Positions 3,766 through 55,907 are shown, numbered from the stretch's first letter. The stretch: DNA of 55,907 nt from Reyranellaceae bacterium (GCA_050185515.1 JBFWZG010000002.1:1-55907), one strand, 5' to 3'. Numbers and translations: made by a program. The notes: generated by a model not told the origin, from the sequence alone.

Positions 3766-4932
3766 TCAGACGAAGTCCAGCAGCAGGTTGCGGCCTCCGG
3801 CGGCAGGCGCAGGCAGGTTCCACCAGCGCTGCGCGACCGTGGCGTAGACGTCGCGGAAATCGACGGCATGGCGCAGGTCGCCCTCGCTGAGATCCGCGAG
3901 CGACGGCTGGCGGCCGTGGAAACCGCCCTTCACCTTGCCGCCCATGACGAAATGCGGCGCCGCCGTACCGTGGTCGGTGCCGCGGCTGCCGTTCTCCGCC
4001 GCACGCCGGCCGAATTCCGAATAGGTCATTACCAGCACCCGATCCCACAGCCCGGCCTGCTTCAGGGCCGTCCGGAACGAAACCAGCCCGGCGCCCAGCT
4101 GGCGCATCAGCCGGTCATGCGTCTCGCGCTGGCGCGCATGGGTGTCGAACCCGCCCAGCGCAACTTTCACGACCGCCAACGGCGTGCGCGACAGCAGCAG
4201 GCGCAGCGCCAGATCGAGGTGACGGCCGAGGGCGTCGTTCGGCATCTCGACTGCCGGCGCCGGCGCGTTCTTCATCCGGTCGCGCAAGGTCAGCGCCGCC
4301 CGATGCACCTCGCCCTGCACCTTCAGCAGATGGCGCAGCGCCGGATTGGCCGGCCGCGAGGCCGAAGCCTGCTGCATGCGCTCGGCCTGGCGAACGAAGC
4401 TCTCCACGTCCTTGAGCACGACGTTGCGCAGGCCAGGTCCGCTGACGGGCAGCACGTTGTCGTCGACCACCACGGCGTCGAGAGCGAACGAGGCCGGCCG
4501 CGGGCTCTTCGCCATGGCGCGGGCGATCCAGCCTTCGCTGAGATATTCATCGCTCGAGGACGCCGTGTCCCAGATCTCGATCGAGCGGAAATGCGAGCGG
4601 TTGGGATCGGGATAGCCGACGCCCAGCACCACGCCGAGCTCGCCGGCCTTCCAGGGCTCGAGCAGCGGCTTCAGCCCGGGATTGAGCCCCAGCCTGTCGT
4701 CGAGCTGCACCACCTCGTCGCGCTCGACGCCGATATTCGGGCGCAGCCGGCCATAGGCGGGATCGGCATATGGCACGACCGTGTTCAGCCCGTCATTGCC
4801 GCCTTTCAGTTCGATCAGCACCAGCGCCCGGTCCCAGTTCGGACCGGCGGACGGGGCGGCGAGGCCCGGCCGCGTCGCCAGCGCCACCGATACGCCGCCA
4901 GCCAGAGCAATGAAATCGCGTCGATTGATCAT
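3766..4932 (-). CDS. DUF1501 domain protein (alkaline-phosphatase/sulfatase superfamily), Tat-exported
   Basis: Twin-arginine signal MINRRDFIALAGG. Motifs GGNDGLN, GGFDTH, SEFGRR and GTDHG are characteristic of DUF1501. Confidence 0.8.
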   Translation of the reverse strand: MINRRDFIALAGGVSVALATRPGLAAPSAGPNWDRALVLIELKGGNDGLNTVVPYADPAYGRLRPNIGVERDEVVQLDDRLGLNPGLKPLLEPWKAGELGVVLGVGYPDPNRSHFRSIEIWDTASSSDEYLSEGWIARAMAKSPRPASFALDAVVVDDNVLPVSGPGLRNVVLKDVESFVRQAERMQQASASRPANPALRHLLKVQGEVHRAALTLRDRMKNAPAPAVEMPNDALGRHLDLALRLLLSRTPLAVVKVALGGFDTHARQRETHDRLMRQLGAGLVSFRTALKQAGLWDRVLVMTYSEFGRRAAENGSRGTDHGTAAPHFVMGGKVKGGFHGRQPSLADLSEGDLRHAVDFRDVYATVAQRWWNLPAPAAGGRNLLLDFV

Positions 4933-4939
4933 GATGCGA

Positions 4940-6436
4940 CTACTTCAGCTGATAGACGGGATCGAGCAGCATCTGCGCGAGAGCCGCCCCCGCGTCGGCG
5001 TCGCGTGGCGCCGGGCTGACGGGCGGCAGCGCCAGCACGATGCGTTCGAGCCGCGCCCGATCGATGCCGCGCAGCGGCTCGGGCAGGCGAATGGCCATCG
5101 GCGCGTCGCGCAGCGACCGGCCTTCGACCGGCATCTCGTTGAGCTGTTCCTTGTCCACCGGCCTGGCCATGCCCATTGACCGGCCGCCGGCGACCTGGGT
5201 GGCCTGGATGATGCGCTGCAGCCCCTGCTCGCGCAGCATCAGCGTGTATGACGAAATCCAGGCCTCGCCGCCCGGCCAGCCCTTGACGTTGGGCGGATCG
5301 AACACGTCCTGACCCAGCAGCCTGCCGGCGCGCACCAGCTTCTGCGCGTCGTCGACCGGCAACTGCAGCAGCCGCAGCGTGCCGACCGTCAGTTCGACCG
5401 GCGACTTGAACAGCGTGCCGCGATTGGCCGGATCGCGAAAGGCCGGCGACACCAGCATGGCGCGCAGCAGCGGCTTCATCTCGTACTTGCTGTCGCGCAG
5501 GAGGGCCGCAAGGCGCCCGACCTCGGTCGGATCGGGCTGCGGCGAGATAAATTCGCGCCACAGCTTCTCGACCAGGCGCTCGGCCGTGCGGGGATGGTTC
5601 AGCACCGTGGCGATGATGTCTTCGCCATCGAGATTGCCGCTGCGGCCGAGGAAGGTCTTGTCGCCGTCATCGTGCAGCACGCGATAGATACGATGGGCGC
5701 CAGTGTCGCGGTCGATCGACCAGCCGGTGAAGGCGCGCGCCGCCTCCTTGATGTCGCGTTCGGTGTAGTTCCCCTCGCCGACCGTGAACAGTTCGAGCAG
5801 TTCGCGCGCGAAATTCTCGTTGGGCTGTCCCTTGCGGCTGGAAACGCCGTCAAGATAGAGCAACATCGCCGGATCGCGCGCCACTTCCTGCAGCAGCCGG
5901 GCGTAGTTGCCGGCCGCCTCGCGTCGGAAAAGCTCGTTTTGCCGGATCAGCGACGGCACATAGCGCGTCTTCTGCACCGAGGAGGTGAAATGGTTGTGCC
6001 AGAACAGCACCATGCGCTCGGTGAAGGGCGAAGGCGTCGACAGCATCTCGCGATACCACCACGCCTTGGCTTCGCCGCCCTGCTGGCGCATCAGATTGGC
6101 GATCTTGAGTATGCGTCCCGTATCGCGCTCGGCCTCGCGCTTCTGTCGCCGGATCTCGCGATTGAGCTGGAAGAACTCCGTCGGCGACATCTCCATCCAG
6201 TCCGGCAACGGCGTCGCCGCCCTGGTCCGCATGCCGTCGAGGATGCGTTCGACGCCGTCGGCGTACTCGAGGCCTTCGAAGCGGGAGACCTCCTCGGGCG
6301 TCGGCTGGAAGCCGGTGCGAGCCAGCAGATGCCGCGCCAGGTCCGTCCCCATTGGCGCTGCGACGGCCGATACCGTCGCAAGAGCGACCGTCATGCCCAA
6401 TCCAACCGCCCACATTCGCACGCCGGACCGGATCAT
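4940..6436 (-). CDS. DUF1800 domain protein, secreted
   Basis: N-terminal signal peptide and an LFWHNHFTS block typical of DUF1800. It sits 7 nt upstream of the DUF1501 gene, the canonical pairing. Confidence 0.72.
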   Translation of the reverse strand: MIRSGVRMWAVGLGMTVALATVSAVAAPMGTDLARHLLARTGFQPTPEEVSRFEGLEYADGVERILDGMRTRAATPLPDWMEMSPTEFFQLNREIRRQKREAERDTGRILKIANLMRQQGGEAKAWWYREMLSTPSPFTERMVLFWHNHFTSSVQKTRYVPSLIRQNELFRREAAGNYARLLQEVARDPAMLLYLDGVSSRKGQPNENFARELLELFTVGEGNYTERDIKEAARAFTGWSIDRDTGAHRIYRVLHDDGDKTFLGRSGNLDGEDIIATVLNHPRTAERLVEKLWREFISPQPDPTEVGRLAALLRDSKYEMKPLLRAMLVSPAFRDPANRGTLFKSPVELTVGTLRLLQLPVDDAQKLVRAGRLLGQDVFDPPNVKGWPGGEAWISSYTLMLREQGLQRIIQATQVAGGRSMGMARPVDKEQLNEMPVEGRSLRDAPMAIRLPEPLRGIDRARLERIVLALPPVSPAPRDADAGAALAQMLLDPVYQLK

Positions 6437-6458
6437 CTCGAAGCTCCCGTCGGTGGAA

Positions 6459-6932
6459 CTACTTTCCCGCTTCGGCGCGCCGCGCGCGCCGTTCGTCGCG
6501 GCGCTTGAGATTTTCGGCGATGCCCGCCTGCAGCGCCTGGCGCTGTTCGGGCGTCAGCGTCTGGTAGAACTCGTTCACCGAGCGCAGCATCGCCTTGTAC
6601 TTCTTGCTCTGGATGTCGCCCAGCGTGTCGATCTTGGCGTCGGCTGCCGCGAAATCCGGCGTGGCCTTAGTCATTTCGGCCAGCAGTTCACGGCGCAGGG
6701 GGCGCATCTCGTCGCGAATGTCGTTCGAATCCGCGCGCAATTCCTCGCGCAGCTTCTCGAGTGCCCCTTTCTGAGGTCCGTCGAGATCGAGCTCGTGAAG
6801 AGCCGCCACGATAGGCGAGCGGCTGCCCATGCGATGCTCGGCCAACCGCTTGCCGTAGATGAAGCCGCCAATGGCGAAGACGTTCAACACCAGCGACAGC
6901 GCCAGCAATATCCAGGGCAGTTTCGCGCGCAT
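6459..6932 (-). CDS. Spy/CpxP-family periplasmic protein (LTXXQ motif, 'periplasmic heavy metal sensor' type)
   Basis: Start moved to MRAKLPWILLALS (signal/anchor). The protein is helical and charged, with an LTPEQ (LTXXQ) motif. The start lies 1 nt after the anti-sigma stop. Confidence 0.68.
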   Translation of the reverse strand: MRAKLPWILLALSLVLNVFAIGGFIYGKRLAEHRMGSRSPIVAALHELDLDGPQKGALEKLREELRADSNDIRDEMRPLRRELLAEMTKATPDFAAADAKIDTLGDIQSKKYKAMLRSVNEFYQTLTPEQRQALQAGIAENLKRRDERRARRAEAGK

Positions 6933-6933
6933 C

Positions 6934-7434
6934 TCAGAGCTCCCCTCCGAACAGACCCGTCGAGTCGTCGCCCAGAAGGGCGAACTCGGCCGGCTCATCG
7001 GCCATGGCGATGTTGTCGCCCAGACCACCCCCGATGAAGAAGCCGCCGCTGGCGGCGATCATGAAACAGGCTCCCACCGCCGCCCATTCCAGGCGCCGCT
7101 GCCAGGAGCCGAACTCGACGCCGAGCCGGGCGAAAAATCCGGCCGGCCGTGGCGCGGCAACCCGCGGCGCCACCATGGCGCGGGCGCGCACCAACAGCCG
7201 TTCCGGGGCCGGCTCGACCGTCTCCGCCGCCGCCCGAGCGGCCAGCGCCATCTCCAATAGCGCCGGATCGGTCGCCAGCGCCCCCTCGACGCGCGCCGCC
7301 AGCCCGGCATCGGCCCGGCCGTCGATCCAGGCGGCAAGATCGAGCGGGTCCATCGCCGTCCGCCCGTCCTGGGGACGGGGGGCGGCACGGCGCCACAATC
7401 GGCGGGCTTCGGTAGGGTCGAATTCCTCGGTCAT
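6934..7434 (-). CDS. anti-sigma factor, single-pass membrane, non-ZAS
   Basis: Lies directly downstream of the ECF sigma gene. One TM segment (AAVGACFMIAASGGFFIGGGL), no His and only one Cys, and an extracytoplasmic tail of only about 35 aa. Confidence 0.6.
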   Translation of the reverse strand: MTEEFDPTEARRLWRRAAPRPQDGRTAMDPLDLAAWIDGRADAGLAARVEGALATDPALLEMALAARAAAETVEPAPERLLVRARAMVAPRVAAPRPAGFFARLGVEFGSWQRRLEWAAVGACFMIAASGGFFIGGGLGDNIAMADEPAEFALLGDDSTGLFGGEL

Positions 7435-7474
7435 CTTCGGTTCCTCGTCTGCCTATACGGCGGGGCGACGCCGC

Positions 7475-8020
7475 CTATCCCCCTGCATTGTCGCGGAAAT
7501 GTTCCCGCAGACGGGTCAGGGCCTTATGGTGGGTCGACCGGACAGTCTGGGCCTCGATGCGGAGCACCGTGGCGATCTCCGCCACATCCATATCCCGGTC
7601 GTAAATCATTTTCAAAACAAGGGCTTGGCGCTCGGTCAGCAGCCCGTCAGGGATCGTCAGCGTCTCCTTTTCGACCGGTTCGACCGCCAGGGCCGCCTCC
7701 GGCACGTCGTCGATATTGGACGTCGGCCGCCGCCGGCGCAGCCAGTCCACCGTCGTCGAATAGGCGATAATGCCGATCCAGGTGGCCAGCTTGGCCTTGG
7801 CCGGGTTGAACTCCCGCAGCAGCCGGTAGTCGTCGCGGCAGAGTTTCAGGAAAACTTCCTGGCCGGCATCGAGCAGATCGTCCTGGGTCGGCCTGAATGT
7901 ACCGAAAGCGCGGCGCACCGCGGCGTGAATCGTTGGCGCATAGCGGGCGCAGAAGGCGTCCCAGCTTCGCTTGTCGCCGCCGACCAGCGCCTTCAGATCG
8001 ATCTCTGCGTCCTGCTGCAC
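7475..8020 (-). CDS. ECF-type RNA polymerase sigma-70 factor
   Basis: Region 2 (DDLLDAGQEVFLKL) and region 4 HTH (LTERQALVLKMIYDRDMDVAEIATVLRIEAQTVRSTHHKALTRLR). Start set to in-frame GTG 8020 (182 aa). The longer track ORF upstream is Arg/Gly-rich shadow sequence. Confidence 0.85.
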   Translation of the reverse strand: MQQDAEIDLKALVGGDKRSWDAFCARYAPTIHAAVRRAFGTFRPTQDDLLDAGQEVFLKLCRDDYRLLREFNPAKAKLATWIGIIAYSTTVDWLRRRRPTSNIDDVPEAALAVEPVEKETLTIPDGLLTERQALVLKMIYDRDMDVAEIATVLRIEAQTVRSTHHKALTRLREHFRDNAGG

Positions 8021-8130
8021 GCGCCCGCATCCACCGTGGCTGGCCCCTTCGGGCGACGAGAATAGCCGATCCGGAGGCGGGACGGCGAATATCCCCTTGT
8101 CGCGCCAGCAGATAATTTGCCGGCATCGCG

Positions 8131-8159
8131 TTGACAAGCCCGGGCCCAGTTCCCATTCT
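8131..8159 (+). promoter_or_regulatory. candidate sigma70 promoter (-35 TTGACA, 17-nt spacer, -10 CATTCT)
   Basis: Perfect -35 hexamer at 8131-8136 and a weak -10 at 8154-8159. The predicted TSS near 8166 falls just before the riboswitch P1 stem. Confidence 0.4.
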
Positions 8160-8167
8160 GCCGCCCA

Positions 8168-8250
8168 CAGGCTGGGGTGCCGGACGCGTCGTCCGGCTGA
8201 GATCAAACCCATCGCACCTGATCTGGATAATGCCAGCGAAAGGGAGCCCG
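8168..8250 (+). promoter_or_regulatory. TPP (THI-box) riboswitch
   Basis: GGCU-GGGGUGCC-(hairpin CCGGACG/CGUCCGG)-GGCUGAGA-UCAAACCC-AUCGCACCUGAUCUGGAUAAUGCCAGCG-AAAGGGAGCC. This matches the invariant THI-box core as in the E. coli thiM and thiC leaders. P1 is 8170-8173 pairing with 8245-8248, and it overlaps the SD AGGGAG. Confidence 0.9.
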
Positions 8251-8252
8251 CG

Positions 8253-9371
8253 ATGATTTTCCATCGTCCGTTTTCCGTCTTGTCGATCCTCCTGGCTGTG
8301 GCCGCGGCGCCGGCTGCCGCCGAACCGCCGCGCCTGCCGGTGCTGGTGCCGATTACCGGCTTCCTGGCGCTGGAAGGCACCAGCCAGCGCAACGGAGCCT
8401 TGCTGGCGCTGGAACGAAGCAGCCTGTCGCCGGCGCCGACCGCCGAGGTGATCGATACCGGCGTCACGCCGGAGGGCGCCATCACCGCCTTCGAGCGAGC
8501 CATGAGCGGTGGCGCCGCGCCGGCGGTCGTGGCGCCGATGCTGGGCACCCAGATGCTGGCCCTGCTGCCGCTGGCCGAGCGCGAGAAGGTGCCGCTGGTC
8601 ACCGTTTCCGGCACGGCGAAGATCACCGAACTGGACAATCCCTGGGTGTTCCGTTTCTTCCCCGGCGACGACGTAGTCAAGGTCGCCCAGGCGCGCTACG
8701 CCGTCGAGAAACTCGGTGCGCGCAAGCCCGCCCTGCTCTACCAGACGACTGCCTACGGCCAGAGCGGCCGCCAGCACCTCGCCGACCAGTTCGCGCGGCT
8801 GGGCGCACCGCTGGTGTTCGAGGAAGGGCTGGCGCCGACGGTCAAGGACGCGCTGCCGGCGCTGGTCAAGGCACAGGCCGCGGGCGCGGACGCGCTGATC
8901 CTGCATCTGCACGCCCCCAGCACGGCGCTCGCCATCGCCCAGGCGCGGGCGCAGGGCATCGATCTTCCCATCGTCGCCGGTTCGGCCATGCACCAGCCGG
9001 CGACCGCCGCCCTGCTTAGCCCGCGCGATCTGGCCGGCGTCTGCGCCGAAACCGCGTCGTCGCCGATCTCCGCGGGCGATCCGGCGATGACGGATTTCGC
9101 CGCCGCCTACCGCAAGCGTTTCGGCACCGAGCCGGACGCCTTCGCCGTGGCGCAGTACGACGGCGCGATGATGGTGCTGGCCGCGCTTCAGGCCGGGGCG
9201 AGCCGACCCGGGGAAGTTCGCGCCTGGCTCGCCAGCCAATCGCACCAGGGTCTGGCCATGCGCTACCGTTCCGACGGCAAGGGAAACATGGCGCACGATG
9301 CGGCGATCGTCTGCTACGACGGCAAGAGCCGCGTTCCCGCCATCGTCCAGCGCTATACCGGCACACCCTGA
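8253..9371 (+). CDS. ABC transporter substrate-binding protein, Leu/Ile/Val-binding (type I PBP, LivJ-like) family
   Basis: ATG 8253 lies 6 nt after GGAG. Signal peptide MIFHRPFSVLSILLAVAAAPAAA. LivJ-like blocks include VLVPITGFLALEG, NPWVFRF and AYGQSG. Confidence 0.82.
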   Translation: MIFHRPFSVLSILLAVAAAPAAAEPPRLPVLVPITGFLALEGTSQRNGALLALERSSLSPAPTAEVIDTGVTPEGAITAFERAMSGGAAPAVVAPMLGTQMLALLPLAEREKVPLVTVSGTAKITELDNPWVFRFFPGDDVVKVAQARYAVEKLGARKPALLYQTTAYGQSGRQHLADQFARLGAPLVFEEGLAPTVKDALPALVKAQAAGADALILHLHAPSTALAIAQARAQGIDLPIVAGSAMHQPATAALLSPRDLAGVCAETASSPISAGDPAMTDFAAAYRKRFGTEPDAFAVAQYDGAMMVLAALQAGASRPGEVRAWLASQSHQGLAMRYRSDGKGNMAHDAAIVCYDGKSRVPAIVQRYTGTP

Positions 9372-9387
9372 GCCGATCGCCGCCGCC

Positions 9388-10260
9388 ATGCTGAGCCTGC
9401 AACTGGCGCTCAATACGCTGGCGCTGGCCGCCGCCTATGCGCTGGTGGCGCTTGGGTTCGTCATGGTGATCAACGCCGTCGGCGCGGTCAATTTCGCGCA
9501 TGGCGATCTCGTTGTCTCCGGCGGCTTCATCGCCGTGCTGTTCGCCACACTGATCGACCTGCCTGCCGTCATTCTGGCGCCGGCCGTCGTTGTCGCGGCA
9601 GGCAGCCTTGGCCTGGCGCTTTCGCTGCTTGCGTATTTTCCACTGCGGCGCGGACCGCCAGTCGGCATATACGTATCGACCATTGCCGTCGGCGTCATGC
9701 TGCAGAACGCGATCCTCAATCTCGCCGGCCCGGCGCCGCGGCGCGGACCGCCACTGCTCGACGCCGCGCCATTGCGAGTGGGCGACGTCGTGGTCTCGAG
9801 CCAGGCGCTGGCGACCATTGCGGTGGCGGCGCTGCTGCTGGCCGGCATGCAGGCCCTCCTGCACCGGACCCAGTTCGGCCGCCGCCTGCGGGCCACGGCG
9901 CAGGATCCGCTGATGGCCGAATCGATCGGCATCGACACCCGCCGCTCCATCGTCTTCTCCTTCGCCATCGCCGCCGCGCTGGCCGGCGCCGCCGGCCTGT
10001 TGCTGGCGCCGCTGCATTTCGTTTCGCCGCACGATGGGGCGGGGCTGATCCTCAAGGCCTATGTCGCCACCGTCATAGGCGGCTGGGGCCATGTGCGCGG
10101 CGCGCTGTTTGGTGCGCTGATCGTCGCCGCTTTCGAAGTGCTGGGCGCCACGCTGGTATCGCAGCCGGCCGCCGAAGCGGCACTGTACGTCGCCCTGCTG
10201 GCGATGCTGTGGCTGCGGCCGGAGGGCCTGTTCGGCGAGCCCTCGAGACGCCGCGCATGA
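9388..10260 (+). CDS. branched-chain amino acid-type ABC permease (LivH-like)
   Basis: Polytopic membrane protein with a LivH-like N-terminus (LALNTLALAAAYALVALGFVMVINAVGAVNFAHGD). Confidence 0.85.
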   Translation: MLSLQLALNTLALAAAYALVALGFVMVINAVGAVNFAHGDLVVSGGFIAVLFATLIDLPAVILAPAVVVAAGSLGLALSLLAYFPLRRGPPVGIYVSTIAVGVMLQNAILNLAGPAPRRGPPLLDAAPLRVGDVVVSSQALATIAVAALLLAGMQALLHRTQFGRRLRATAQDPLMAESIGIDTRRSIVFSFAIAAALAGAAGLLLAPLHFVSPHDGAGLILKAYVATVIGGWGHVRGALFGALIVAAFEVLGATLVSQPAAEAALYVALLAMLWLRPEGLFGEPSRRRA

Positions 10261-11972
10261 CGTCGCCCGATCGCAGCCTGGCTTTCGATCGCGTCCTGGG
10301 CGGGGCGCTGATCTTCGCTGCCCTTGCCGCAGCCACGTTCGTGCGCGATGCCTATCTGCAGCGACTGCTGGCCGTCGCCGGCTGCTACGCCATCCTCGCG
10401 ATCGGCTACCAGCGAATTTTCGGCGAACTTGGCGTGCTGTCGCTGGCACAGGGCGCGTTCTTCGCCGTCGGGGGCTATGCTGCCGCCATCCTGTCGCTAC
10501 GCACCGGCTGGGACGGTGTGCTGTTACTGGGCGCCGCGATCGTTGCCGCGGTATTGCTGGCGGTCCTCGCCGCCCCGGCGATGCTGAAACTGGCATCGCA
10601 CTACTTTGCTCTCGCCTCTCTCGCCCTCGCCCAGCTCGTGCTGCTGGCGACCATCAATTTCGAATCCTTCACTGGCGGCAGCAACGGGCTGAGCCCTTTG
10701 CCACCCTTTGCCATGGTGGGCGTCGAACTGTCGCCGGGAACCCCGATGACACTGGCTATCTGGTCCGCCGCTGCCGCAACCGCGATCCTGTTCTGGCAGC
10801 CGGGACCGCTGGCCGCCCTGCGCCGGCTTGTCCTGCGCGAAGCGCCGCTGGCGGCACAGGCCATGGGCATCGATGCGGCGCGCTGGCGGCTGGCGGCTTT
10901 CGCCTTTGCCGCCGGTTGCGGCGGTCTTGCCGGCGGTTTCTACGTCCATGGCACCGGCGTCGCCGCACCCGACATCGCCGACTTCGGCATTGCCGTCAAT
11001 GCGCTGGCCATCACGGTGATTGGCGGACGCGGCCGGGTTGGCGGCGCCGTGCTGGGCGCTGTGCTGCTGGCGTTTCTGCCCGAAGCATTGCGCTTTCTCG
11101 GCGGCTGGCAACTGTTCGCCTGGGGTGGAGCCATGCTTGCCATGCTGATCCTTGCTCCCGACGGGCTGGCAGGACTGCTCCAGCGTTCGTTCACGAATTC
11201 CCCCGGAATACCGGATCGGACGCCGGTCAATAGCCGGATAGCGCTGGGCCAGGCCGGTACTTTGTCCGGAACCCGTCTGCGCAAGAATTTCGGGGGCGTA
11301 ACCGCGGTCGACGATATCTCGATGGATGTACGGCCGGGTGAGATCGTGGGCCTGATCGGCGGCAATGGCGCCGGCAAGACGACGTTGCTCAATCTGCTGA
11401 CCGGCTTCGAGACACCCGATACGGGATCGATCGTCTGGCGCGGTGGCGACGTCACGACGCTGGATACCAGCCGTCGCGCCCGGCTGGGCATAGGCCGCAG
11501 TTTCCAGATCGACCAGCTGCCCGGCACGCTGACCGCGCTCGATGCTGTGGCGGCCGCCGTGTGGCAGACAGGGTCGCTGCCAGCTGCCCGTGTGGCGGCA
11601 AGCACGCTGCTCCAACAGATGGGCCTTGGCGAACGCTGCGCCGAGCCGCTCGACACACTGCCACCCGCCACCAGGCGGCTGGTTGACATCGCCCGCGCCC
11701 TGGCAGCGTCGCCCGGCGTGCTGCTGCTCGACGAGCCGACGGCCGGCCTCAGCGCGACCGAGCGCGACGGGCTGGGCCGGACATTGGCAACATTGCGGGA
11801 GCAAGGACTCGGCATGGCGATCGTCGAGCACGATCTCGCCTTCCTGCTGCCACTTGTCGACCGCCTGGTTTGCCTGCGCGATGGACGGATCGTCGCCGAA
11901 GGTACGCCGGACGATCTGGCCAGCCGGCCGGACCTGCGGGATTTTTTCGCCGGTTACAGGGGCACGCCATGA
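10257..11972 (+). CDS. fused LivM-like permease / LivG-like ATPase
   Basis: The N-terminal ~330 aa are polytopic. The C-terminal part has Walker A GGNGAGKTT, Walker B LLLDEPTAGLS and an H-loop VEHDL. The signature motif is degenerate (LPPATRRL). ATGA overlaps occur at both ends. Confidence 0.85.
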   Translation: MTSPDRSLAFDRVLGGALIFAALAAATFVRDAYLQRLLAVAGCYAILAIGYQRIFGELGVLSLAQGAFFAVGGYAAAILSLRTGWDGVLLLGAAIVAAVLLAVLAAPAMLKLASHYFALASLALAQLVLLATINFESFTGGSNGLSPLPPFAMVGVELSPGTPMTLAIWSAAAATAILFWQPGPLAALRRLVLREAPLAAQAMGIDAARWRLAAFAFAAGCGGLAGGFYVHGTGVAAPDIADFGIAVNALAITVIGGRGRVGGAVLGAVLLAFLPEALRFLGGWQLFAWGGAMLAMLILAPDGLAGLLQRSFTNSPGIPDRTPVNSRIALGQAGTLSGTRLRKNFGGVTAVDDISMDVRPGEIVGLIGGNGAGKTTLLNLLTGFETPDTGSIVWRGGDVTTLDTSRRARLGIGRSFQIDQLPGTLTALDAVAAAVWQTGSLPAARVAASTLLQQMGLGERCAEPLDTLPPATRRLVDIARALAASPGVLLLDEPTAGLSATERDGLGRTLATLREQGLGMAIVEHDLAFLLPLVDRLVCLRDGRIVAEGTPDDLASRPDLRDFFAGYRGTP

Positions 11973-12607
11973 GCGCCGGGCTGCTGCGCGTCCGCAATCT
12001 GCGCGCCTGGCGCGGCGCGGCGACGGTTTTGCAGGGCGTCGACCTCGACGTCGCCGTCAGCGAGGCGGTCGCCATTGTCGGGCCGAACGGCGCCGGCAAA
12101 TCGTCACTGGCGTTGGCTATCGCCGGCCATCTGCGCAGCGCCGGCGAAATCGTCTTCGACGGCGCCAGTGTGCAGAACCTGCCGGCGTATCGCCGGGCCA
12201 GGCTTGGCATCGGATTGTGTCCGGAGGGGCGGCGCATGTTTCCGGCCATGACGGTCGCCGACAGCCTGCTGGTCGGCGCTCCGGTGGCCGATCGGACACT
12301 GCTGCGGACCATGCTCAGCCTGTTCCCCGAACTGGAGCGGCGCCTCGACGCGCCTGCCTGGCAGCTCTCCGGCGGCGAGCAGCAGATGCTGGCGCTGGGG
12401 CGCGCCTTGATGGGGCGACCGCGCCTGTTGATGCTCGACGAACCGTTCCTCGGCCTGTCGCCCGCCGCAAGCCAGCGCCTCGCCGATGCGCTGCGCGGCG
12501 TTGCCCGGCAAGGCGTTTCGCTGCTGCTTGCCGACCAGGATGCGCAACGCGCCGAAAGCCTCTGTTGTCGCTCGATTTTTCTCGATCGCGGCACGATCAA
12601 GGCCTGA
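11969..12607 (+). CDS. ABC transporter ATP-binding protein (LivF-like)
   Basis: Walker A GPNGAGKSS, canonical signature LSGGEQQML, and Walker B LMLDEPFLGLS. Confidence 0.9.
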   Translation: MSAGLLRVRNLRAWRGAATVLQGVDLDVAVSEAVAIVGPNGAGKSSLALAIAGHLRSAGEIVFDGASVQNLPAYRRARLGIGLCPEGRRMFPAMTVADSLLVGAPVADRTLLRTMLSLFPELERRLDAPAWQLSGGEQQMLALGRALMGRPRLLMLDEPFLGLSPAASQRLADALRGVARQGVSLLLADQDAQRAESLCCRSIFLDRGTIKA

Positions 12608-12760
12608 ATATCTCTGTGGAAAATTCCGGGCACCTGAACGCCGTCGGATATTGCGGCGCACAATCGCCGATGGCGAATTTTTCAGCAATGTTAAGCGCTT
12701 AGCCCTCTTGCCGGACCTGGGGTTTGCCGTTAAGAACGAGCGCGCTCAGGCTTGGGGGCA

Positions 12761-13486
12761 ATGATGGCGACTAAGAAAATTACGCGCAGCAAAGTCGAGC
12801 AGGCGGCCGCCCGCGAAACGGCGAAGCTGTTGCTGGAAATCGAAGCCGTCCATTGCCGGCCTGACCAGCCCTTCATCTTCACGTCCGGCCGCGCCAGCCC
12901 GGTCTATATCGACTGTCGTAAGATCATCGGCTTCCCCGAGGCGCGCACCAAGATCATGGCGCATGCGCATAAGCTGATCGACGAGAAGATCAAGTGGTCG
13001 AAGATCGACGTCGTCGCGGGCGGCGAGACCGCCGGCATTCCCTTTGCCGCCTGGCTCGCCGACAAGGCCAAGAAGCCGATGGTCTACGTGCGCAAGCAAC
13101 CCAAGGGGTTCGGCCGCATGGCGCAGATCGAAGGCGACCTGAAAAAGAACCAGCGCGCACTGCTGGTAGAGGATCTGGCGACCGACGGCGGCAGCAAGAT
13201 CAACTTCATCGAGGCGCTGCGCAAGGCCGAGGCCAAGTGCACCGACGCCTTCGTCGTGTTCCACTACGGCATTTTCCCGCAAAGCATCGATGCGCTCGCC
13301 ATGATGGGCGTCAAGCTGCATGGTCTCGCGACCTGGTGGGACGTGCTGGAAGCGGCCGAGAAGCACAAGTATTTCGACCAGAAGGGCATCGACACGACGC
13401 GCGCCTTCCTCGAGAAGCCCGAGGAATGGTCGGCCGCCCACGGCGGCGCAAAGATGCGCCCGGCCCCGGCGGCGGCGCGGGGCTGA
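12761..13486 (+). CDS. pyrE: orotate phosphoribosyltransferase
   Basis: PRPP-binding loop LLVEDLATDGGSK and GGETAGIPFAAWLA. ATG 12761 (or 12764) follows GGGGG. Confidence 0.88.
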   Translation: MMATKKITRSKVEQAAARETAKLLLEIEAVHCRPDQPFIFTSGRASPVYIDCRKIIGFPEARTKIMAHAHKLIDEKIKWSKIDVVAGGETAGIPFAAWLADKAKKPMVYVRKQPKGFGRMAQIEGDLKKNQRALLVEDLATDGGSKINFIEALRKAEAKCTDAFVVFHYGIFPQSIDALAMMGVKLHGLATWWDVLEAAEKHKYFDQKGIDTTRAFLEKPEEWSAAHGGAKMRPAPAAARG

Positions 13487-38685: not shown

Positions 38686-39279
38686 CTACGGATAGAGCCG
38701 CTCGCGCGACCAGGCGTTGGCGCCCTGCCCACGCGAGAACACCAGACGGTCGTGCAGCCGGAAGGGCTTGTCCTGCCAGAACTCGATGCGCTGGGGCAGC
38801 ACGCGAAATCCGGACCAGTAGGGCGGCCGCGGCACCGTGCCGACATGGAACTTGGCGGCATAGCTGGCGACCGCTTTCTCAAGTTCCATGCGGCCCGTCA
38901 GCGGCCGCGACTGCTTCGACGCCCACGCCCCGATCTGACTGCCGCGCGGGCGGCTGGCGAAATACTCGTCGGCGTCCGCGTCGCTGACCTGCTCCACCGG
39001 CCCCTCGATCCGCACCGAGCGGCGCAGCGATTTCCAGTGGAAGCAAAGCGCCGCCTTGGGGTGCTCGATCAGCTGCTGTCCCTTGCGGCTCTCGAAGTTC
39101 GTGTAGAACACGAAACCCCGCTCGTCGACGCCCTTGAGCAGCACCATGCGCGCGCTCGGCATGCCATCGGCGCCGACAGTTGCCAGCGTCATGGCATTGG
39201 GGTCTGCGGGCTCGGCCTTGGCCGCCTCGGCGAACCAGGCGTCGAACTGCGCGATCGGATCGTTTTCTGTGTCTGCCAT
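38686..39279 (-). CDS. pdxH: pyridoxamine 5'-phosphate oxidase
   Basis: [20 protein letters not shown], and a C-terminal RLxP-type ending (WSRERLYP). Confidence 0.92.
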
Positions 39280-39449
39280 CGTCCCGTTCCTGTGGCGCGA
39301 CTATGCCCTCTGGCGCCGCGCGGAGCCATCACCGGATTGCATAGCGGCAATCGATCGCTATCTAAAGGGCCGAAATGATTGGCCTTGGCGGCGAACGGGC
39401 GGGATGATGCAAATCGCTCGCAGCCGTGGCGGCGATAGAACGAGTGAAG

Positions 39450-53094: not shown

Positions 53095-55029
53095 CTAGGC
53101 CCGCGCGCCTGCTTCCGCCTCTTCCTTGCCAAGCGCCGCCAGCGCCGTCGCAACGATGTGGTGGGCGTTGAGGCCGGCATCGTCGTATTGCGCCGCCGGC
53201 GAATTGTGCTCGATGAATCGGTCCGGCAGCACCATCGGGCGGATCTTCAGGCCGCTGTCGAGCAGGCCCGCCGTGGCGAGGAACTGCAGTACGTGGCTGG
53301 CGAAGCCGCCCACCGAGCCTTCCTCGATGGTGATCAGCACCTCGTGCTCGCGCGCCAGGCGGCGGATCAGCTCCTCGTCGAGCGGCTTGGCGAAGCGCGC
53401 ATCGGCCACCGTCGCCGGCAGGCCGCGCGCCGCCAGCTCCTCGGCCGCCTTCATCGCCTCGCCCAGCCGCGTGCCGAGGCTGAGAATGGCGATCTTGCCG
53501 CCCTCGCGCAGGATGCGGCCCTTGCCGATCTCCAGGGGCGCGCCCCGCGCCGGCAGTTCGATGCCGACGCCCTCGCCGCGCGGATAGCGCACCGCCGAGG
53601 GCCGGTCGTCGATCGCAGCAGCCGTCGCCACCATGTGCATCAGCTCCGCCTCGTCGGCGGCCGCCATGACCACGAAATCCGGCAGGCAGGCGAGATAGGC
53701 GATGTCGAAGGCGCCGGCATGGGTGGCGCCGTCGGCGCCGACCAGCCCAGCGCGGTCGATGGCGAAGCGCACGGGCAGTTTCTGGATGGCGACGTCGTGC
53801 ACCACCTGGTCGTAGCCGCGCTGCAGGAAGGTCGAGTAGATCGCCGCGAAAGGCTTGTAGCCCTCGGTGGCGAGGCCGGCGGCGAAGGTTACCGCATGCT
53901 GCTCGGCGATGCCGACGTCGAAGCTGCGCGCGGGAAAGCGTTCGGCGAACTTGTCCAGACCGGTGCCGCTCGGCATCGCCGCGGTGATGGCGACGATCTT
54001 CTGGTCGGCCTCGGCTTCCGCGATCAGCGCCTTGGCGAACACCGATGTGTAGCTCGGCGCATTCGCCGCCGCCTTTACCTGGGTGCCGGTGATGACGTCG
54101 AACTTGGCGACGCCGTGATATTTGTCCGCGCTCTGCTCGGCCGGGCCGTAGCCCTTGCCCTTCTGCGTCACGCAATGGATCAGCACCGGCCGGTCGAGCC
54201 TGGCGTCGCGCGCGTTCTTCAGCACCGGCAGCAGATGCTCGATCTTGTGGCCGTCGACCGGCCCGACATAGTAGAAGCCCAGCTCCTCGAACAGCGTGCC
54301 GCCGGTCACCAGGCCGCGGGCATATTCCTCCGCCCGCTTGGCCGCCTTCTCGAACGGCCGCGGAAAGGCGCGCGCCATGTGCTTGCCGATCTGGCGCAGC
54401 GACAGGTAGGGACGCGAGGAGATCAGCCGCGAGAGGTAGCCGCTCATGGCGCCGACCGGCGGGGCGATCGACATGTCGTTGTCGTTCAGCACCACGATCA
54501 GCCGGCTCTTGAGATGCCCGGCATTGTTCATCGCCTCGTAGGCCATGCCCGCACTCATGGCGCCATCGCCGATCACCGCCACGACGTTGCGCGTCGCCCC
54601 GGAAAGATCGCGCGCCACCGCCATGCCCAGCGCGGCCGAGATCGAGGTCGAGGAATGCGCCGCGCCGAAGGGATCGAATTTGCTCTCGCTGCGGCGGGTG
54701 AAGCCCGACAGCCCGCCGCCCTGACGCAGGGTGCGGATGCGGTCGCGCCGTCCGGTCAGGATCTTGTGCGGATAGGCCTGGTGGCCGACGTCCCAGATCA
54801 CCCGGTCTTCGGGCGTCTTGAACACGTAATGCAGGGCGACAGTGAGCTCGACCACACCCAGCCCGGCGCCGAGATGGCCGCCTGTCACCGATACCGCATC
54901 GATCGTCTCGCGGCGCAGCTCGTCCGCCACCTGCGGCAGCTTCGCCTCGTCGAGCCGACGCAGATCCTCCGGGCCCGACAGCGTGTCGAGCAGCGGCGTT
55001 CTGCTGTCGTTTTGCGGCTCTTTCCCCAC
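53095..55029 (-). CDS. dxs: 1-deoxy-D-xylulose-5-phosphate synthase
   Basis: [14 protein letters not shown] and the TPP-binding [15 protein letters not shown]. Full length is 644 aa. Confidence 0.95.
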
Positions 55030-55124
55030 GCCCTGGCTCCCGTGGCTGACAAACCAAAAATCGTTCCCGACCGGGGCGCCTTCAAGGCCGCGCTTTGTCG
55101 CGGCCGAGGCGCCTCTGCGCCGTT

Positions 55125-55907
55125 CTAGCGGCGGCGACTGACCACGAAACGCGCGGCCTGGCGCAACAAATCCGCCTTTTCCTGAAATATTTCAAGGTGC
55201 TTTCCGGCCTGCTCGGCCAGCATGCCGGCCTGCGCCCGGGCCCGCTCCAGCCCCAGCACGTCGACGAATGTCGCCTTGCCGCGGGCCTTGTCCTTACCGA
55301 CGGCTTTTCCCGCCTCGGCTGCATCGCCCTGCGCGTCGATCAAATCGTCGACGATCTGGAAGGCGAGCCCGAGATCATGGGCATAGGCGTGCAAGGCATG
55401 CCGGCTCGGCTCCGCCGCCTTGCCTAGGACGGCGCCGGCCGTGCATGCGAAGGCGATCAGCTCGCCGGTCTTCATGCGCTGCATGCGGGTGATTTCGCCG
55501 ATGCCGAAGCTGCCGTCGGCCGCCGCCAGATCGAGCATCTGGCCGCCGACCATGCCCTGCGCGCCGATCGCCATGGCAAGGCCCTTCACAAGTTCGCAGC
55601 GCACCGCCGGATCGCCATGCGTGGCGCTGTCGGCCAGCGTCTCGAAGGCCAGCGACTGCAGCGCATCGCCGGCCAGGATCGCGGTCGCCTCGTCGAACTT
55701 GCGATGCACGGTAGGCTCGCCGCGGCGCAGATCGTCATCGTCCATCGCCGGCAGATCGTCGTGGATCAGCGAATAGGCGTGCACGAACTCGACCGCCGCC
55801 GCCACCCGCGCCGCCGCCGGTTCGGCGACGTTGAACAGCCTTGCCGAGGCCAGCACGAAAAACGGCCGCAGACGCTTGCCGCCCGACAGCGCCGCATAGC
55901 GCATCGC
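55125..55907 (-). CDS. ispA: farnesyl/geranyl diphosphate synthase (polyprenyl synthetase), N-terminus outside window
   Basis: First Asp-rich motif [16 protein letters not shown] and second motif FQIVDDLID. The ORF is open to the window end. Confidence 0.9.

Follow-up and report, generated by a model that had tools for sequence, protein, structure and literature searches.

We analysed a stretch of 55,907 nucleotides from a Reyranellaceae bacterium (GCA_050185515.1 JBFWZG010000002.1:1-55907; the window in the following), in which a thiamine pyrophosphate (TPP) riboswitch lies directly upstream of the four genes of an ATP-binding cassette (ABC) importer. The features of this cassette, with positions counted from the first nucleotide of the window, are the following.

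8131-8159, plus strand: putative sigma-70 promoter, with the -35 element TTGACA at 8131-8136, a 17-nucleotide spacer and the -10 element CATTCT at 8154-8159
8163-8262, plus strand: TPP riboswitch aptamer (THI element), Rfam family RF00059
8241-8255, plus strand: ribosome-binding site AGGGAG (8241-8246) and start codon ATG (8253-8255)
8253-9371, plus strand: periplasmic substrate-binding protein of 372 amino acids (PF13458, 149 bits), with a signal peptide that ends between AAA and EPP
9388-10260, plus strand: LivH/UrtB-like permease of 290 amino acids (PF02653, 130 bits)
10257-11972, plus strand: fusion of a LivM-like permease (residues ~35-299) and a LivG-like ATPase (residues ~336-566), 571 amino acids (PF02653 and PF00005)
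11969-12607, plus strand: LivF/UrtE-like ATPase of 212 amino acids (PF00005, 96.9 bits)
12664-12686, plus strand: weak terminator-like hairpin with a T-run, between the last ABC gene and pyrE

A preliminary description of the window had assigned an operon to positions 8253-12607, and the reading frames bear out these coordinates: a gap of 16 nucleotides separates the genes for the binding protein and the first permease, and ATGA overlaps at 10257 and 11969 join the remaining genes. The composition proposed there, a type I LivJ-like binding protein, a LivH-like permease, a LivM::LivG fusion and LivF, is matched by the Pfam assignments (PF13458, PF02653, PF02653 with PF00005, and PF00005, respectively). 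The distinction from ThiBPQ, ThiXYZ and YkoEDC also stands, as the cassette proteins have neither homology to ThiB or ThiP nor NMT1 or energy-coupling factor (ECF) domains. The hairpin at 12664-12686 may mark the end of the operon; taken alone it is not significant, with five such sites found against 3.9 expected.

The match to RF00059 (67.1 bits against a gathering score of 54.3; E 4.6e-11) covers the full model, positions 1-105, and RF00059 is the sole Rfam family matched across the 55.9 kb window. A THI-box had been placed at 8168-8250 in the preliminary description, and the motifs quoted there (GGGGUGCC, the P3 hairpin, GGCUGAGA, ACCC and CACCUGAUCUGGAUAAUGCCAGCG) are all present in the window sequence. 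The CUGAGA pyrimidine sensor, carried by P2/P3, is located at 8197-8202 and the pyrophosphate sensor, ACCUGAUCUGGAUAAUGCCAGCG, at 8216-8238; both are nearly invariant among 74 aligned leaders. P4/P5 extends over 8217-8243. P1 is formed by 8168-8172 paired with 8246-8250 (Rfam alignment mapped to coordinates), in essential agreement with the AGCC at 8245-8248 that had been named as its 3' strand.

In a search with one genome per species, 343 relatives of the binding protein were confirmed. We compared the loci of the best 80 of these 343, which share 60-94% identity; 78 loci include upstream DNA and two do not. They derive from Azospirillum (about 25 species), Nisaea, Skermanella, Thalassobaculaceae, SAR116, Reyranellaceae and many alphaproteobacterial metagenome-assembled genomes. 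A TPP aptamer is located directly 5' of the binding-protein gene in 76 of the 78 loci: 69 carry the core motif, five more reach the Rfam gathering score, and two (L017 and L023) score 46.6-47 bits (E ~5e-6), under the gathering score of 54.3. Of 20 motif-positive loci, 19 reach the gathering score with one match apiece, at the expected position (L044 falls short), and 24 related loci in total, among those scanned with Rfam, reach it. The helices are maintained across 74 distinct aligned aptamers, with compensatory changes in P2, P3 and P5 and nine of 17 predicted pairs doubly changed; covariation in P1 (GGC/GCC versus GUGAUG/CGUCAC, with an indel in the alignment) was judged by eye only.

The four transporter genes stand together in every locus compared, and the permease::ATPase fusion is conserved in the orthologous loci. 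The flanks vary: in Nisaea the neighbours include CHASE2 and isocitrate-dehydrogenase genes, in two metagenomic lineages glycosyltransferases or mreCD-pbp2, and in Azospirillum thermophilum genes of nucleoside catabolism. Because the genes stay together while their flanks differ, we consider promoter, aptamer and four genes to be the conserved unit. Orthologous binding proteins keep the riboswitch in these varied genomic contexts, as the preliminary description had anticipated, and the pairing of riboswitch and importer is not due to chance. If the RF00059 match had arisen by chance, or were a relic without any part in regulating the transporter, its E-value in the window, its recurrence at the same position in the orthologous loci, the compensatory changes and the conserved promoter would be hard to account for; this explanation is effectively refuted by the conservation data.

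The promoter had been described as TTGACA-N17-CATTCT, and the sequence is as claimed. A scan for E. coli-type consensus promoters passes over it, because its -10 element fits at only three of six positions. We therefore compared 72 leaders, namely the window and 71 of the loci L002-L084. A TTGACA box with at most one mismatch lies 40-50 nucleotides 5' of the aptamer GGGG in 67 of the 71 orthologous leaders (exact in 58), and is followed, 17 nucleotides on, by a weak, G+C-tolerant -10 element of the CAnnnT type (CATTCT, CACTGT, CATCGT, CAGGTT). Because the TTGACA box is conserved across the leaders, we accept the promoter and a start at the 5' edge of the aptamer, where transcription would begin at ~8165-8168. 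Compared in this way, the leaders also illustrate neatly how an alphaproteobacterial promoter can escape an E. coli-type scan.

The ribosome-binding site is part of the aptamer. AGGGAG lies six nucleotides before the ATG at 8253, as had been reported, and the Rfam alignment coordinates place it inside the aptamer: on their 3' sides, P4 includes A8241-G8243 and P1 consists of G8246-G8250. Four of its six bases are paired in the TPP-bound fold, and P1 stops two nucleotides short of the AUG. Since most of the ribosome-binding site is buried in the TPP-stabilized fold, the Rfam consensus structure implies that the window leader would act as a translational OFF switch without a separate expression platform.

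The distance between aptamer and start codon differs among the leaders. In the window and ~17 related loci (the window's clade and about a dozen others), the ATG follows the aptamer GGGAG by 6-11 nucleotides; in Azospirillum, Nisaea, Skermanella, Thalassobaculaceae and SAR116 it is located 54-117 nucleotides downstream of the aptamer. For the long leaders, folding suggests a C-rich element, CUCCCCGCC in several Azospirillum-type leaders and CCUCCUC in L053, that could pair alternatively with the 3' strand of the aptamer or with a strong ribosome-binding site. Both expression platforms would then lead to repression at high TPP. Single-sequence folding additionally gave a 6-bp hairpin, GCGAUG/CAUCGU, around the start codon of the binding protein (window 8250-8267, plus strand). 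We set this hairpin aside: the sequence past the ATG differs in L002, which suggests that there is no conservation at this position.

The domain content of the importer is that of the HAAT family, with a secreted type I binding protein (Peripla_BP_6), two BPD_transp_2 domains and two distinct ATPases. The NCBIfam models that come closest to the four subunits are those of the Liv and Urt systems, and all scores are far below the equivalog cut-offs: LivJ 34.9 of 477 bits, LivH 105.9 of 379, LivG 135.3 of 362 and LivF 144.1 of 441; UrtB 122.4 of 250.3, UrtD 135.1 of 304.1 and UrtE 157.6 of 285.8. The NCBIfam model for UrtA found no match among the cassette proteins. Because all scores are this far below the cut-offs, the subunits belong to a HAAT-type ABC importer (TC 3.A.1.4) and are not orthologues of Liv or Urt proteins.

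The AlphaFold model of the binding protein is a closed two-lobe structure (mean predicted local distance difference test score 90). Foldseek aligns it with solved structures of LivK/LivJ-type proteins, aromatic-acid binders, urea binders and AmiC (template-modelling scores 0.8-0.85, those for LivK/LivJ-type proteins being 0.82-0.85; 15-23% identity). No closely related solved structure with a ligand was found among the PDB and Foldseek matches; the best PDB sequence match is 3td9 (E 4e-18, 22% identity). In a search of 1.84 billion representatives the family is compact, comprising 80 clusters at E 1e-30 or better, and the scores of relatives drop steeply below ~50% identity. Fourteen residues are invariant in 64 family members: F37, E41, Q100, T121, Y168, Q170, H220, S244, H247, Q248, E266, S270, S273 and Q301.

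We compared these positions with E. coli LivJ (~20% identity) using a profile alignment and a multiple alignment. The ligand-contact residues of LivJ, Tyr18, Thr102, Tyr150, Tyr202, Glu226 and Phe276, fall into two groups. Three have the same residue as their counterpart: Thr102 aligns with T121, Tyr150 with Y168 and Phe276 with F297. Tyr18 is replaced by Glu41, Tyr202 by His220, and Glu226, which holds the alpha-amino group, by the non-acidic Ser244 or Ala250. The pocket is thus remodelled: the amino-acid contacts made by Tyr18, Tyr202 and Glu226 are not retained, and the family has an invariant Glu/His/His/Gln set of its own.

The nearest paralogues (35-44% identity) have changes at the invariant pocket positions and no aptamer. 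Their cassettes are located at 2988-8582 in L091, 3215-8356 in L093 and 2290-8478 in L099, and those of L091 and L099 contain the same permease::ATPase fusion as the window cassette. A gene for a GntR/FCD regulator adjoins the cassettes of L091 and L093, and CoA-transferase, Ldh_2 and IlvD-type genes adjoin that of L099. The pocket changes, the neighbouring genes and the lack of an aptamer in the paralogues together argue for a distinct ligand of the TPP-linked family. These sequence relationships also suggest that the TPP-linked family arose from organic-acid importers.

We propose, with a probability of roughly 0.78, that the cassette imports a thiamine-related compound under repression by TPP. 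Genes controlled by bacterial TPP riboswitches fall under thiamine synthesis or the transport of thiamine and its precursors (PMC3766115), and because TPP regulons are classed in this way a thiamine-related cargo seems by far the most likely. In this model the cassette would be self-contained, consisting of promoter, TPP riboswitch and four-gene ABC importer, with transcription beginning just upstream of the aptamer. At high cellular TPP, the ligand would lock P4/P5 and P1 and hide most of AGGGAG, blocking translation of the binding protein; expression of the downstream genes, coupled by the 16-nucleotide gap and the two ATGA overlaps, would be expected to fall alongside. At low TPP the weak P1 would open and the operon would be expressed. 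The secreted binding protein would then take up its ligand in the periplasm and hand it over to a membrane channel, a heterodimer of the LivH-like protein and the LivM-like domain, powered by two different ATPases, the fused LivG-like domain and the LivF-like protein.

Several observations weigh against this proposal. L016 and L072 have no aptamer upstream of the binding-protein gene, and binding-protein orthologues at 51-56% identity occur without any TPP aptamer (1878-3035 in L095, 4001-5158 in L096, 1859-3076 in L097 and 2907-4124 in L098), so riboswitch control is not obligatory. In tblastn searches with E. coli ThiC, ThiD, ThiE, ThiF, ThiG, ThiH, ThiM, ThiS, ThiB and ThiP (TenA, ThiO and Thi4 were not among the queries), no match was found in the window or in 85 related loci, and no thi gene was found in Pfam scans of the open reading frames (ORFs) of the window selected by third-position G+C content (GC3). 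These results agree with the earlier remark that the window holds no thi biosynthesis genes. The only related gene is the housekeeping gene dxs; with no thi gene clustered, the context gives no clue to the substrate. Minimum-free-energy folding of a single leader fails to recover the aptamer fold, so the OFF mechanism is drawn from the Rfam consensus structure. Finally, the placement of the pocket residues depends on sequence alignments at ~20% identity.

The aptamer-free orthologues differ in their pockets. The P0121 and P0123 proteins (L095, L097 and L098) retain nearly the whole signature, and the P0122 protein (L096) retains E41, H220, H247 and Q248 and differs at F37, T99 and Q100. L097 and L098 are AT-rich contigs, possibly of reduced or host-associated genomes; a pyrE-like gene is located downstream in L097.

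Which thiamine-related compound is transported can be narrowed tentatively. The liganded structural matches mostly hold small ligands, such as amino acids, hydroxybenzoates, keto acids and urea, and for this reason we favour a vitamer of the size of a precursor. Our first choice, itself doubtful, is the pyrimidine moiety, as hydroxymethylpyrimidine (HMP), aminomethylpyrimidine (AmMP) or formylaminopyrimidine (FAMP). The thiazole moiety or carboxylated hydroxyethylthiazole (cHET) seems an unlikely cargo. Intact thiamine (or thiamine monophosphate or TPP), with the cassette as a functional analogue of ThiBPQ in the lineages that carry the cassette, would be a possible but rather less probable choice than the pyrimidine. 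Thiamine is the commonest cargo of TPP-controlled ABC importers (list in PMC3766115); the invariant Glu and the aromatic residues F37, F135, F136, Y168 and F297 could suit a cationic thiazolium and an aminopyrimidine, and the riboswitch-free orthologues persist on AT-rich contigs that may belong to reduced genomes. However, thiamine is larger than the ~75-190 Da ligands of the structural relatives, with the palmitate-bound 4n03 as an exception. ThiB was not found on Azospirillum plasmids and chromids, a collection that holds no chromosomes, so this result has no bearing on redundancy.

A carboxylated thiamine-related compound, such as cHET or an oxidized thiamine fragment, recognized through the carboxylate preference of the family, appears improbable to us. 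The S-G-T motif at a helix N-terminus is invariant and aligns with the carboxylate-binding A-A-T of LivJ, many structural relatives bind aromatic carboxylates, and the nearest paralogues have GntR/FCD regulators or genes of acid catabolism (CoA transferase, Ldh_2) as neighbours; for cHET, the literature searched names no transporter. Yet S-G-T is a general feature of the fold, no particular basic residue could be assigned to the pocket, and with the E. coli Thi queries neither ThiM nor another thiazole-salvage gene was found clustered in the window or the 85 loci. Much further from our proposal, the cassette could serve a TPP-sparing response, being switched on at TPP depletion to import a non-thiamine metabolite that cells make with TPP-dependent enzymes, for example branched-chain amino acids. 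Such a role would fit the family resemblance to LivJHMGF and the analogy with B12 riboswitches over B12-independent isozymes, but we judge this very improbable: the equivalents of LivJ Tyr18, Tyr202 and Glu226 are lost, every Liv equivalog model stays far under its cut-off, the differences from the paralogues argue against mere amino-acid uptake to spare TPP, and the classification in PMC3766115 has no place for such a regulon member, as it files TPP-regulated genes only under thiamine biosynthesis or thiamine and precursor transport. Taken as one class, a thiamine-related compound that lacks a known bacterial transporter (cHET, or an oxidized or degraded fragment) and a TPP-sparing non-thiamine metabolite together are unlikely to account for the cargo.

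The genes around the cassette in the window are listed here.

3766-4944, minus strand: DUF1501 protein
4940-6436, minus strand: DUF1800 protein
6459-7028, minus strand: LTXXQ/Metal_resist periplasmic protein
6934-7434, minus strand: ORF without a family match, possibly an anti-sigma factor
7475-8128, minus strand: extracytoplasmic function (ECF) sigma factor
12752-13486, plus strand: pyrE, orotate phosphoribosyltransferase (333 bits against a cut-off of 245)
53095-55191, minus strand: dxs, a housekeeping gene for the TPP-dependent enzyme that makes 1-deoxy-D-xylulose 5-phosphate, precursor of the thiazole of thiamine

The block at 3766-8128 (minus strand) diverges from the riboswitch promoter. 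The genes for the sigma factor, the unassigned ORF and the LTXXQ protein are syntenic in L001-L005, in a comparison that did not include those for the DUF1800 and DUF1501 proteins. pyrE follows the cassette in the window's clade and also in Nisaea, SAR116 and Thalassobaculaceae, and is better conserved than the transporter (93% versus 79% identity in L002). The Azospirillum and Skermanella loci lack pyrE, and we rejected it as an operon member, regarding its position as plain synteny. Two housekeeping loci without a riboswitch complete the picture: dxs with a polyprenyl synthase gene at the end of the window (53095-55907, minus strand), and a cofactor gene, for pyridoxamine-phosphate oxidase, mid-window (38686-39300, minus strand).

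The cassette probably takes up vitamin B1 or one of its building blocks, as a hitherto undescribed system in which the HAAT family has been drawn into thiamine salvage. TPP riboswitches are reliable signposts of thiamine genes, and several families of thiamine or precursor transporters were first predicted in this way. As judged from the 343 relatives, the cassette is present in at least several hundred alphaproteobacterial species, among them the plant-growth-promoting and genetically tractable Azospirillum and the abundant marine SAR116 clade. Public annotation is everywhere generic or reads "branched-chain amino acid" transporter; NCBI, for example, labels the Azospirillum genes "ABC transporter substrate-binding protein" and "branched-chain amino acid ABC transporter permease". 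Knowing the ligand would correct a systematic misannotation, provide a marker gene for metagenomics of the B1 cycle and widen the substrate range of the HAAT family. If cHET or a thiamine fragment were the cargo, the cassette would represent a new vitamer route in rhizosphere and marine B1 cycling; if the cargo served to spare TPP, the cassette would be the first member of a bacterial TPP riboswitch regulon outside thiamine metabolism.

The preliminary description knew of no Liv-family importer characterized for thiamine or its precursors, and the literature searched names none. The full-text literature contained no description of the system (subscription journals, RegPrecise and SEED were outside that search), and no Liv-type system is included in either of two transporter catalogues. 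The first, from 2013, lists thiXYZ, ykoFEDC, cytX, thiU, thiW, thiT, ecfA/T, pnuT, thiBPQ and omp_thi as TPP-regulated transporters, and leaves out the Rhodospirillales (PMC3766115). The second, the transporter set of a 2024 study of marine B1, comprises thiB, thiT, thiY, thiV, cytX, ykoF, ThiPerm and omr1; some populations in that study are without any described transporter for B1 or a vitamer (PMC10881298). Transporter sets on which inferences about B1 auxotrophy, and about the exchange of B1 among members of microbial communities, are based do not contain the cassette (PMC3766115; PMC10881298).

ThiBPQ, the thiamine/TPP importer of E. coli, is likewise a binding-protein-dependent ABC importer directly behind a TPP riboswitch with translational control, and presumably the logic of import at low TPP is common to both. 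The two systems have no sequence kinship: E. coli ThiB and ThiP have no tblastn match in the window or the 85 related loci, and ThiQ matches just the generic ABC ATPase domains. ThiBPQ consists of the type II binding protein ThiB, the single fused permease ThiP and one ATPase, whereas the cassette has a type I binding protein (Peripla_BP_6), two BPD_transp_2 domains and two different ATPases. The likeliest functional model is provided by ThiXYZ and YkoEDC(F) (HMP/FAMP and thiamine-related compounds; Firmicutes and others), which also take up precursors under the control of TPP riboswitches. ThiY is NMT1/THI5-like and YkoEDC is ECF-type, and neither domain type is found in the cassette, for which the Pfam assignments are PF13458/PF01094, PF02653 and AAA-type ABC ATPases.

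Fold and subunit set are common to the cassette and to LivJ/LivK-LivHMGF and other HAAT systems, including UrtABCDE and the aromatic-acid binding proteins of Rhodopseudomonas. The cassette differs from these in its low identity to solved structures (15-23%), in the fusion of LivM and LivG, in the replacement of LivJ Tyr18, Tyr202 and Glu226, and in its regulation, by a TPP riboswitch instead of Lrp, nitrogen or substrate regulators. In this last respect the closest parallel is the E. coli thiM TPP riboswitch, an OFF switch acting on ribosome access, as we propose for the cassette leader. The thiM arrangement of aptamer 3' strand, anti-Shine-Dalgarno and Shine-Dalgarno sequences is apparently matched by the leaders of Azospirillum and Nisaea, whereas in the window leader and those of ~17 related loci the conserved AGGGAG of the aptamer itself serves as the ribosome-binding site, with no separate platform.

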